The translations under genes and the position numbers were made by a program. Below are positions 29,872-31,592 of a stretch of DNA of 64,000 bases, piece after piece. The notes beneath the pieces were generated by a model that was not told where the DNA came from, did not search any database, and saw nothing but the letters and a program-made list of their open reading frames with translations. Position 1 is the stretch's first letter. Every line of letters begins with the position of its first letter. This DNA is from Blastocatellia bacterium (lineage in GTDB: Bacteria > Acidobacteriota > Blastocatellia > UBA7656): positions 809,240 to 873,239 of the forward strand of contig CAVXWP010000009.1 in the NCBI GenBank assembly GCA_963765495.1. Direction: 5' to 3'.

Positions 29872-29955
29872 GGCCTAACTCGTCATTCCAGCGGACGCGC
29901 ATGCCAACCGCTCGCGTTCCATCAGCTACCGGCGCGCCGCTGAACTCGTCGTTAG
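29872..29955 (+). repeat. attC-like recombination site 1 (R'' GCCTAAC ... R' GTTAGGC, 84 bp imperfect palindrome)
   Basis: Integron core / inverse-core consensus RYYYAAC...GTTRRRY; internal L boxes TTCCAGCGG / CCGCTGAA with unpaired spacer. Confidence 0.6.
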
Positions 29956-30014
29956 GCTTCCCTTGCCAAAGCAGGCACCAGACATTCAATTTCAAATAGG
30001 CTATTATACTAACG

Positions 30015-30488
30015 ATGGGAAAGACGGCTATCTATATCGAAACGAGTGTTGTCAGCTACCTTGTGGCAAGGCCAAGCCGCGACCTTATTGTTGCGGCACA
30101 CCAACAAATTACCTCTGACTGGTGGCATAGCCATAGCCATCAATATGATCTTTTTATTTCACAAATCGTCCTTGATGAATCAAGAGCAGGCGATAAAGAG
30201 ATGTCGAACAAGAGACTTGCTGCTATACAAGACTTGTCGCTTCTGGATATTAATGAAGATGTTATTCAACTCGCTGAACATCTTGTGAATTCTAATGCTG
30301 TTCCTCAGAAAGCAGCACAGGATGCTCTACACATTTCTACAGCATGTGTAAGTGGCATGGATTATCTTCTCACCTGGAATTGCAAACACATCGCAAATGC
30401 AAAAATGCGAAATCAAATTGAAAAAGTGTGCCGAGAAGCGGGTTACTTGCCGCCAATCATATGCACTCCTGAGGAACTGGAGGGTTAA
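30015..30488 (+). CDS. PIN-like domain protein (DUF3368-type?), putative toxin
   Basis: MGKTAIYIETSVVSYLVARPS N-terminus and LTWNCKHIAN C-terminal motif typical of a PIN-like family. Confidence 0.6.
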   Translation: MGKTAIYIETSVVSYLVARPSRDLIVAAHQQITSDWWHSHSHQYDLFISQIVLDESRAGDKEMSNKRLAAIQDLSLLDINEDVIQLAEHLVNSNAVPQKAAQDALHISTACVSGMDYLLTWNCKHIANAKMRNQIEKVCREAGYLPPIICTPEELEG

Positions 30489-30490
30489 GT

Positions 30491-30688
30491 ATGTGGAATG
30501 ACCCCATAGTAGAAGAAACCCGTAGAGTACGAGAAGTCTTAGCATCAAAGTTTGACTATGATGTTAGACTACTGGGCCAATACTATAGATCTCAACAGAT
30601 AAACGAAGGGCGGACTATCGTACGCAGGCAACCAAAGGATCGAGCACAAAGAGTGGAAGAAAGTCCTGTGGTTATGGACCAAGCCTAA
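30491..30688 (+). CDS. Small hypothetical protein, translationally coupled partner of the PIN-like gene
   Basis: 65-aa ORF starting 2 nt after the PIN stop; its TAA stop lies within attC 2. Confidence 0.5.
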   Translation: MWNDPIVEETRRVREVLASKFDYDVRLLGQYYRSQQINEGRTIVRRQPKDRAQRVEESPVVMDQA

Positions 30689-30767
30689 CTGCTCATTCCA
30701 GCGGACGCGCATTTCAACTGCTCGCGTTCCATCATCTACCGGCGCGCCGCTGAATTCGGCGTTAGAC
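30683..30767 (+). repeat. attC-like recombination site 2 (R'' GCCTAAC ... R' GTTAGAC)
   Basis: About 90% identical to site 1; the same cores and L boxes. Confidence 0.6.
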
Positions 30768-30843
30768 TCTCGCGTTTATTTCCAATACAGTGATTTGGTT
30801 AAACCATGCTAATACGTGGTATTATTCGAGAGGAGTCAAACTT

Positions 30844-31083
30844 ATGAATTGGAAAGAGCACATAGTTGTAGACCCTACCATCTGTCACGGCAAGGCTTGT
30901 ATTAAAGGAACTCGAATTATGGTTTCTGTTGTTTTGGATAATCTTGCTGCAAATGTTACCCCTAAAGAAATCCTTTCAAGTTATCCTTCTCTAAAACCAG
31001 AGGATATTCAGGCTGCTGTGGCCTATGCTGCTCTCCTAGCGCGAGAGCGAGTTATCCCTTTCCCGGAAAAGGCTACTGCTTGA
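30844..31083 (+). CDS. DUF433 domain protein (antitoxin-like)
   Basis: [34 protein letters not shown] is the DUF433 signature. Confidence 0.8.
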
Positions 31084-31379
31084 AATTCAAAATAGACGAG
31101 AATTTGCCAGTCGATATTGTAGACCTATTTCGCTCATCACGTTTCGATGCTTCATCGGTCTTTGATGAAAATCTGGCTGGAGAATCCGACGACCGGATCA
31201 GCGAAGTGTGCCAAGAAGAAGAGCGTGTTCTTATCACGTTGGATTTGGATTTTAGTGATGTGAGGTCATATCCCCCTGAAGATTATCCAGGGTTGATAGT
31301 GTTGCGTTTGAATCAACAAGACAACAGCAATTCTCGGTTTAGAGGAAATCGCACCGGGATATACCACGAAACACACTAA
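31080..31379 (+). CDS. DUF5615 (PIN-like) protein, partner of DUF433
   Basis: [18 protein letters not shown]-terminus; TTG start overlapping the DUF433 stop (cTTGAaa). Confidence 0.7.
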
Positions 31380-31592
31380 ATACACGAATAATTCTTCTAT
31401 TTCGTGTGCTTCGTGTATTTCGTGGTTCACTTTTTGTTAAGACAGAATTTCTAAACCGAGAATTGCTGACAAGACAAGCCCTTTGTTATCAGTGTCATCA
31501 AGAAGGTGATTGAAATGCTTAATTACGAACCGATAAAGAATCGGCTTTGGGTTGTTGAGGAGACTCGAATAAGAATTCGCGGGGAGAAAGAA

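Follow-up and report, generated by a model that had tools for sequence, protein, structure and literature searches.

Introduction

Clusters of attC sites without an integrase (CALINs) are defined as at least two attC recombination sites clustered within 4 kb, with no intI gene nearby and with pseudogenes of intI sought within 10 kb (PMC4889954). Clusters of two cassettes are the commonest size, accounting for 1362 of 2961 CALINs (10.1101/2022.09.11.507474). The locus considered here lies in a 64-kb stretch of chromosomal DNA from a Blastocatellia bacterium of the Acidobacteriota (the window), where two 85-nt repeated elements, attC1 and attC2, enclose a PIN-type gene with a small partner gene and are followed by a second gene pair, DUF433/DUF5615. 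A preliminary description, made from the sequence of the window, had read the two elements as integron-type attC sites, the gene pairs as toxin–antitoxin (TA)-like cargo and the whole as a CALIN. On the analysis reported here, the cluster is very likely a small CALIN, made up of attC sites and one TA-type cassette, with no integrase within ~30 kb.

Each component of such a cluster has a described counterpart. In attCaadA7, the extrahelical bases G16 and T23, an unpaired central spacer and a variable terminal structure are the defining features of the site, and attC crossover takes place canonically at G|TT (PMC5027507). For the Acidobacteria, a taxon-specific attC covariance model has been published (Ghaly et al., 2021; PMC8352920). 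TA cassettes that carry their own promoter are known (PMC13108822), and a PIN-COG2442 pair, VapBC10 of Synechocystis PCC 6803, has been experimentally shown to be a TA system (PMC3834315). Two-cassette CALINs, TA cassettes, acidobacterial attC sites and the PIN-COG2442 pair are thus all kinds that have already been described.

The locus in the window resembles the CALIN class in its same-strand pair of attC sites, its lack of intI, its cargo other than antibiotic resistance and its associated insertion sequence (IS), and it differs in no categorical way: its size is the minimal one, and of its two gene units one appears to have lost its attC (PMC4889954). Like the catalogued Acidobacteria-type attC sites (PMC8352920), those of the window are chromosomal and acidobacterial; the R and L boxes of the window sites also occur in arrays of Desulfobacterales, and the box type is therefore not specific to the phylum. 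The locus is a further example of a class that already has many members. It opens no long-standing question, and can be considered ordinary but well resolved.

Architecture and Folding of the attC Sites

attC1 occupies positions 29873-29957 of the plus strand, starting 57 nt after the stop codon of a pilT gene, and runs for 85 nt from an R'' box, GCCTAAC, to an R' box, GTTAGGC. attC2, at 30683-30767 on the same strand, has the same length and architecture and ends in the R' box GTTAGAC, leaving a gap of 725 nt between the two sites. The pair was recovered by a repeat search as family D9 (29868-29958 and 30678-30768; 88% identity) and by blastn at 90% identity over 83 nt. The two near-identical elements of about 85 bp in the preliminary description are thus present; the limits given for the second were exact, and those given for the first (29872-29955) were off by 1-2 nt. 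An identity of 88-90% between copies is as found in sedentary, not mobile, integrons.

Both sites contain the RYYYAAC core in R'' and the GTTRRRY core in R'. The pattern GCCTAAC-N(60-85)-GTTAGRC, corresponding to the cores reported earlier, matches the window twice, both times on the plus strand and with a spacer of 71 nt, and matches none of 100 shuffled sequences. In attC1 the order of elements is R'' GCCTAAC, 5 nt, L'' ATT-C-CAGCGG, an A, a stem, a variable tip, the returning stem, L' CCGCTGAA(C), a spacer and R' GTTAGGC. The L-box complementarity that had been pointed out, TTCCAGCGG/CCGCTGAA, holds in attC1 and attC2 alike, with one extra base on the L'' side.

When the bottom strands of the two sites are folded as DNA, each forms an R stem and an L stem separated by an internal loop; the L stem carries two bulged bases, a G and a T, on the L'' arm, which is the 3' arm. 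The R/L-box hairpin with extrahelical bases that a bottom-strand fold had been expected to produce is thus recovered, and the internal loop corresponds to the unpaired spacer of the attC architecture proposed at the outset, with 5 nt per side, or 6 when A13 is counted among the unpaired bases. The bulged G and the bulged T lie 7 positions apart, equal to the spacing of G16 and T23 in attCaadA7, which supports the identification of the elements as attC sites (PMC5027507). A scanner that uses architecture only reported just attC1 and attC2 in the window, just the known attC in the locus of plasmid R100, and no site in shuffled windows. A third or degenerate attC was not found in the 64 kb by the scanner at low threshold, blastn-short, nhmmer or the covariance model described below.

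The register of the window sites is shared base for base with the aadA1 attC of the class 1 integron In2 on R100, where GTT-C-AAGCCG-A stands in place of ATT-C-CAGCGG-A. One arm of the aadA1 site reads GTT-C-AAGCCG-A-CGCC and the other, in register with it, GCG-CGGCTT-AAC. The layout common to the aadA1 and window sites is RYYYAAC, 5 nt, 3 bp, an extra base, 6 bp, an extra base, a stem, a tip, the stem again, 6 bp, 3 bp, a spacer and GTTRRRY. As in the window cassette, the aadA1 attC directly follows an open reading frame (ORF): in R100 it stands immediately after aadA1, downstream of intI1, and its sequence is present at 100% identity in ~2000 plasmids. The two kinds of site differ in length, with 60 nt in aadA1 and 85 nt in the window, where the tip is longer, and in the L box, which is AAGCCG in aadA1 and CAGCGG in the window.

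Related Sites and Covariation

A search with the R/L-box pattern located 3 further sites in metagenome-assembled genomes (MAGs) of Desulfobacterales and 16 in metagenome contigs. These 19 distinct same-box sites are 77-103 nt long and keep the boxes, with tips that are unrelated in sequence and length; when aligned, TAAC and GTTA are invariant in all 19. With both arms in register, 88% of the cells of this alignment are paired, compared to 26-40% when the partners are slid against each other. Double (compensatory) changes occur in 10 of the 18 pairs of the L box and inner stem, and the covariation score is 0.32, compared to 0.11 in shuffles. Pairing is often missing at the outer three positions of the R box, as is to be expected of attC sites, in which the TTRRRY past the point of crossover is part of the following cassette.

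Sites of this box type also occur beside integron integrases. Searching by tblastn with IntI1 of R100 revealed a homologue of 51% identity (E=4e-96) 2-3 kb from a same-box site in contigs L012 and L018, as well as a partial homologue in L014. In all three contigs intI is oriented divergently from the same-box sites, and all three carry co-oriented arrays of diverse attC-type sites; the integrase of L012 passes the TIGR02249 profile at 465 bits (cutoff 265). One attC box type is common to arrays of Acidobacteriota and Desulfobacterota. The suggestion that the window might hold an undescribed attC type of its own lineage falls on this evidence and on the Acidobacteria attC model already in print (PMC8352920).

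Two other loci carry attC sites of interest. In L033, positions 5-4886 form an array of six mutually similar attC sites of 90-93 nt, whose cassettes include a HicB-like pair and a PIN module and whose tips share the motif CGTTCCATCA with the attC sites of the window. In L032, a Phage_int_SAM_4 fragment of 88 amino acids (2532-3031) adjoins an attC site ~1 kb downstream of a PIN module, and may be an integrase remnant in non-canonical orientation.

Scoring Against Covariance Models

A surrogate attC covariance model (R2) was built from 15 full-length array sites, chosen for having other L boxes, and the aadA1 attC of R100, with the window sites left out. It matches attC2 over its full length at 42.7 bits (E=3.2e-8) and attC1, also over its full length, at 41.6 bits (E=6e-8). 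On the minus strand the same sites score 11.7 and 14.5 bits, respectively, giving a strand asymmetry of 28-31 bits, and no score above 9.1 bits was returned from the remainder of the 64 kb. In this surrogate form, the covariance check that had been recommended for these sites came out in their favour. In a control on 175 kb of fetched loci, all 57 matches fell in integron-type contigs, including every same-box site that had been held out, and none fell in the ~85 kb of ordinary Blastocatellia chromosomal DNA. Rfam gave no match at the window sites. In the R100 control, Rfam reported the attI-associated leader alone and not the aadA1 attC; because Rfam is without an attC model, its blank result in the window is uninformative on attC identity.

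In combination, the architecture and bottom-strand fold, the covariation, the covariance model and the association of like sites with intI elsewhere identify the two 85-nt elements, on sequence grounds, as genuine attC recombination sites. A few observations pull the other way. Some of the training sites of R2 share the L-box letters CAGCGG with the window sites, making the model partly dependent on sequence. A first model, with truncated tips and loops, ranked attC1 and attC2 first and second, yet with E values of only 1.7 and 4.1. In addition, the right-hand spacer is 5 nt long in attC1 and attC2 and 6 nt long in the aadA1 attC; a length of 5 nt is also seen in other array sites.

The PIN Cassette

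Because crossover is canonically at G|TT, the complete cassette extends over 810 bp on the plus strand, from the TT of the attC1 R' box to the G of the attC2 R' box (29952-30761), which would be the circle released on excision by an integron integrase. Its first gene, a putative toxin gene encoding 157 amino acids (30015-30488, plus strand), matches the Pfam PIN profile at E=7.9e-4, below the cutoff, and its product has more than 7900 homologues, some of which are called VapC family toxin by NCBI. An AlphaFold2 model of the protein has a predicted local distance difference test score (pLDDT) of 91.6, and when this model is compared with the PDB by Foldseek, nearly all of the best matches are to VapC toxins (probability 1.0; target template modelling score 0.6-0.7), indicating that the protein has a VapC fold. 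Searching PDB sequences with the PIN profile returned nothing relevant. E9, E55, D103 and N122 are invariant in the family. The family also has invariant cysteine and histidine residues (H106, C111, C123, H125, C139 and C150), which could form a metal site.

The second gene (30491-30688, plus strand), a putative antitoxin gene encoding 65 amino acids, starts 3 nt after the PIN stop codon. As the preliminary description had observed, its own stop codon lies within attC2, the TAA at 30686-30688 falling inside the R'' box GCCTAAC at 30683-30689. The N-terminal 35 residues of the partner are nearly invariant over 14 sequences, and 3448 cluster representatives were found at E<=1e-3. In the predicted structure of the protein (pLDDT 68.6), two helices form a hairpin and the basic tail is disordered. 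It belongs to no family in Pfam (where the matches were noise), NCBIfam or PADLOC; the latter two gave no match for any of the four cargo proteins of the cluster. The few source records checked give the partner no name, and no literature search was aimed at it.

Homologous modules were compared at five loci (L029-L033), which represent four different neighbourhoods; L031 and L032 encode the same protein and have near-identical upstream sequences. In all five, an ORF of 57-66 amino acids begins 3 nt after the PIN gene. The arrangement with the PIN gene first and the small gene second, initially regarded as unusual, is thus the normal order for this family of modules. In L033, attC sites at 3978-4070 and 4794-4886 enclose a module with 78% identity as one cassette, and the distance from the upstream attC to the start codon is 57 nt, equal to that in the window cassette. 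At the DNA level, the two coding parts are 74% and 65% identical between the window and L033 modules, compared to only 42-55% in the untranslated region (UTR) and the attC sites.

The module is also accompanied by a conserved upstream element. A promoter-like motif, CAGACA-17 nt-TATTAT, is located at 29979-30007 on the plus strand and ends 7 nt before the ATG of the PIN gene. The same motif, in the form C(A/G)GACA-17 nt-TAT(T/C)AT-7 nt-ATG, recurs at an unchanged offset in 5 of 6 loci (L030-L033 among them), in a UTR that is otherwise ~42% identical. A scan of the window cluster for promoters and terminators gave counts not above chance, and it is because of the conservation of the motif across loci, not because of the scan, that a promoter is proposed. 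No Shine-Dalgarno sequence is evident by eye before the PIN gene. The module's own promoter would thus probably give a leaderless or near-leaderless mRNA.

In carrying a two-gene, addiction-type module with its own promoter within one cassette, the window cassette resembles the TA cassettes of sedentary chromosomal integrons such as the Vibrio cholerae superintegron (PMC13108822). It differs from these in its acidobacterial host, in having no integrase or large array in view, in placing the toxin-like gene first and in having a function that is predicted (PMC13108822). Relative to the VapBC norm, in which a DNA-binding antitoxin is encoded upstream, the putative antitoxin is encoded downstream and matches no antitoxin family.

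Two points tell against the assignment of the pair as toxin and antitoxin: it is drawn from the coupling and co-occurrence of the genes, and the fourth catalytic position of the PIN family is an invariant asparagine, N122, and not an aspartate. It is accordingly proposed only tentatively, at a little under even confidence, that the PIN gene and its 'MWNDPIVEETR...' partner make up an uncharacterised and very widespread TA family with reversed gene order, its own promoter giving a leaderless mRNA, and an atypical active site (E, E, D and N with invariant Cys/His residues), which is passed from genome to genome as one integron cassette. The module is the only modestly novel thread of this locus, being abundant in metagenomes, nameless as to its partner in the libraries checked, and demonstrably borne on cassettes.

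The Disrupted Second Gene Pair

Downstream of attC2, a gene of the DUF433 (COG2442) family, a VapB-type antitoxin family, is located at 30844-31083 on the plus strand (Pfam DUF433, E=2.8e-25). It is followed on the same strand by an interrupted toxin gene of the PIN-like DUF5615 family at 31080-31595 (31080-31324 and 31478-31595), whose TTG start codon overlaps the DUF433 stop codon. The DUF5615 match (E=1.4e-19) covers profile positions 1-82 of 110. The family assignments made for the cargo genes in the preliminary description are thus borne out by Pfam, with the PIN match falling below the cutoff.

The interruption is a 144-bp insertion at 31325-31468 that resembles a miniature inverted-repeat transposable element (MITE). 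It has perfect terminal inverted repeats of 19 bp, holds an internal hairpin of 26 nt, and is flanked by a 9-bp target duplication, ACAAGACAA, at 31316-31324 and 31469-31477. No other copies of the MITE were found in the window. In-silico excision of the MITE, together with one of the two target-duplication copies, restores a DUF5615 ORF of 120 amino acids, and from its sequence the toxin gene appears to be inactivated by the MITE. The end of the cluster had been placed at 31440, a position that falls inside this insertion; the MITE, the IS that follows it and the missing third attC had all gone unnoticed.

An IS of the IS5 family, ~1 kb in length (31595-32600, plus strand), abuts the DUF5615 stop codon. 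Its inverted repeats are imperfect, with 86% identity over 22 nt, and lie at 31593-31614 and 32581-32602. The transposase is encoded in two frames, 31636-31908 and 31799-32521, which are split inside the helix-turn-helix (HTH) domain: the product matches DDE_Tnp_4 (E=1.3e-29) and NF033581, and the match to HTH_Tnp_4 is divided at profile positions 22/23. The split might reflect a mutational or a programmed frameshift, or else an error in sequencing.

By its family matches, the DUF433/DUF5615 pair is assigned to the known PIN-COG2442 type of VapBC. As in VapBC10, a DUF433 gene is followed by an overlapping PIN-like gene, here at 30844-31595; the likeness lies in the pairing of COG2442 with a PIN-like partner, which in the window is a DUF5615 protein whose gene the MITE disrupts (PMC3834315). 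No papers were found that name DUF433 and DUF5615 together. Most probably the pair was once a second cassette and its attC has since been lost. The claim that the locus consists of cassettes with TA-like pairs holds, then, for the first pair, which forms a complete cassette, and fails for the second, which has no attC downstream and a toxin gene broken by the MITE.

Genomic Setting and the Absence of an Integrase

The native left flank of the cluster is a gene for an ATPase of the pilT/pilU family at 28781-29815 on the plus strand (344 amino acids, P0121; TIGR01420 at 426 bits), and the native right flank is an M23 peptidase gene at 32704-33474 on the same strand. The M23 peptidase gene is separated from the IS by 101 nt, in which there is no attC. 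PilT is 77-78% identical to proteins of Blastocatellia MAGs, and these relatives keep the genes upstream (AMP-ligase, cytochrome c554, a small ORF and pilT) and differ in the genes downstream. As the shared genes extend up to pilT and not beyond, the cluster begins at a synteny breakpoint at the 3' end of pilT. The GC content is 42-47% over 29.9-31.6 kb, compared to ~55% in the flanks. At the other end, contig L020 breaks at the end of the IS, at window position 32593.

The window reaches ~30 kb to each side of the cluster. A tblastn search of all frames of the 64 kb for IntI gave best E values of 6.6 with the IntI1 query and 4.2 with the environmental IntI of L012, in agreement with the earlier remark that no intI-like recombinase appears nearby, and no intI pseudogene or attI-type leader was found over the same 64 kb. 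With at least two attC sites within 4 kb and no IntI in the window, the locus comes under the CALIN definition, as had been supposed when the two sites were first noticed (PMC4889954).

Origin of the Cluster

The proposed explanation starts from the bottom strands of attC1 and attC2, which would fold into a hairpin of the kind recognised by integron integrases, with an R box, an unpaired central spacer, an L box carrying an extrahelical G, an extrahelical T 7 positions on, a stem and a variable tip. The two sites would bound one 810-bp cassette, composed of the VapC-fold PIN gene and its translationally coupled 65-residue partner under a conserved promoter of their own, and the two products may act as a TA-type addiction module that stabilises the cassette. 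As expected from the mechanism of integrons, recombination between attC1 and attC2 could give a circular cassette if an integrase were provided in trans, whether encoded elsewhere in the genome or brought in by an incoming element. The DUF433/DUF5615 pair would be the former second cassette, its attC lost, its toxin gene hit by the MITE and an IS5-family element at its end. The cluster as a whole would then be the decaying remnant of what was once a larger array of cassettes, moved or cut short by rearrangement (mechanism iv of PMC4889954). The locus would thus provide an instance of integron cassettes, and of their decay by MITE and IS, in the Blastocatellia, a poorly cultured soil lineage.

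The rival that survives best agrees on the identity of the attC sites and takes the cluster to be a detached part of a functional integron, with intI elsewhere in the same genome, either more than 30 kb from the cluster or on a different contig, and the cassette still actively shuffled; the two readings differ only over the autonomy of the element. About half of CALINs are found in replicons that also encode IntI (PMC4889954), and both attC sites of the window are intact and as similar to each other as those of sedentary arrays. A Logan unitig of the same organism (L022, ERR11718635) ends at window position 29912, inside attC1, which hints at more near-identical copies in that sample, or at heterogeneity. 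With the k of the Logan assembler taken as 31, and since attC1 and attC2 share no exact run of 31 nt, the break points beyond the two copies of the window. Nevertheless, intI, its pseudogenes and attI-type leaders are all missing from the 64 kb, and the neighbouring gene pair is decaying through MITE and IS. On balance a split but functional integron is a possibility to be taken seriously, with perhaps one chance in three of being right.

In the next alternative, an integrase inserted one or more cassettes into a secondary (attG) site of the genome downstream of pilT, and no array was ever fragmented. From the geometry of recombination, such an insertion is expected to produce just the GTT core at its left end and a complete attC at its right end. 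In the cluster, a full attC with no cassette ORF before it stands on the left and no attC on the right, and GTT does not occur in the 57 nt from the pilT stop codon to attC1. The small size of the cluster and its foreign GC content would suit an insertion of this kind, which has been proposed as the way in which small CALINs arise, two cassettes being the commonest size (10.1101/2022.09.11.507474). The succession of a full attC without an ORF, a cassette, a full attC and genes without attC, together with the synteny break and the IS, favours an array fragment over insertion at a secondary site, which is considered unlikely.

That the repeats are generic extragenic palindromes (repetitive extragenic palindromic (REP)-like sequences, MITE ends or terminators) which flank a TA module by chance would suit their two copies in the window, their modest fold z-scores of -2.9 and -1.5 and the lack of a match in Rfam, itself without an attC model, but this reading is largely refuted and highly improbable given the attC register shared with aadA1, the strand asymmetry under the attC model, the covariation of the inner stem and not of the outer R pairs, the overlap of a stop codon with R'' of attC2, the same-box sites in co-oriented arrays next to integron integrases and the absence of matches in ordinary chromosomal DNA of relatives.

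The interpretation of the locus as a small CALIN left over from a larger array has its own weaknesses. An integrase may exist elsewhere in the source genome, beyond the 64-kb window. The array-fragment origin is deduced from the geometry and from the break in synteny, for which the only relatives compared have 77-78% PilT identity; among these no true empty site, with the insertion junction, was found. Finally, the IS is flanked by the dinucleotide TA on both sides, which is too short to prove a target duplication and fits a simple insertion without deletion; these flanks neither prove nor exclude a deletion mediated by the IS.

Other Features of the Window

Elsewhere in the window, two paralogous genes resembling those for TonB-dependent receptors (CarboxypepD_reg, Plug and beta-barrel domains) are located at 4721-7834 and 10969-14123, ~6.3 kb apart and with 71-82% DNA identity. 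The first is intact and encodes 1037 amino acids, and the second, broken into at least six ORFs, is probably a pseudogene. G+C-rich tandem repeats with GGGGCC-type units of 7, 15 and 29 nt are found at 47735-47836, inside an ORF for a GT87-like glycosyltransferase (46885-48456), and a similar stretch is found at 26765-26806, at the 3' end of the AMP-ligase gene. Additionally, runs of the heptamer TCACGCA (repeat family D12) are present at 1028-1065, 25066-25103 and 57962-57999.

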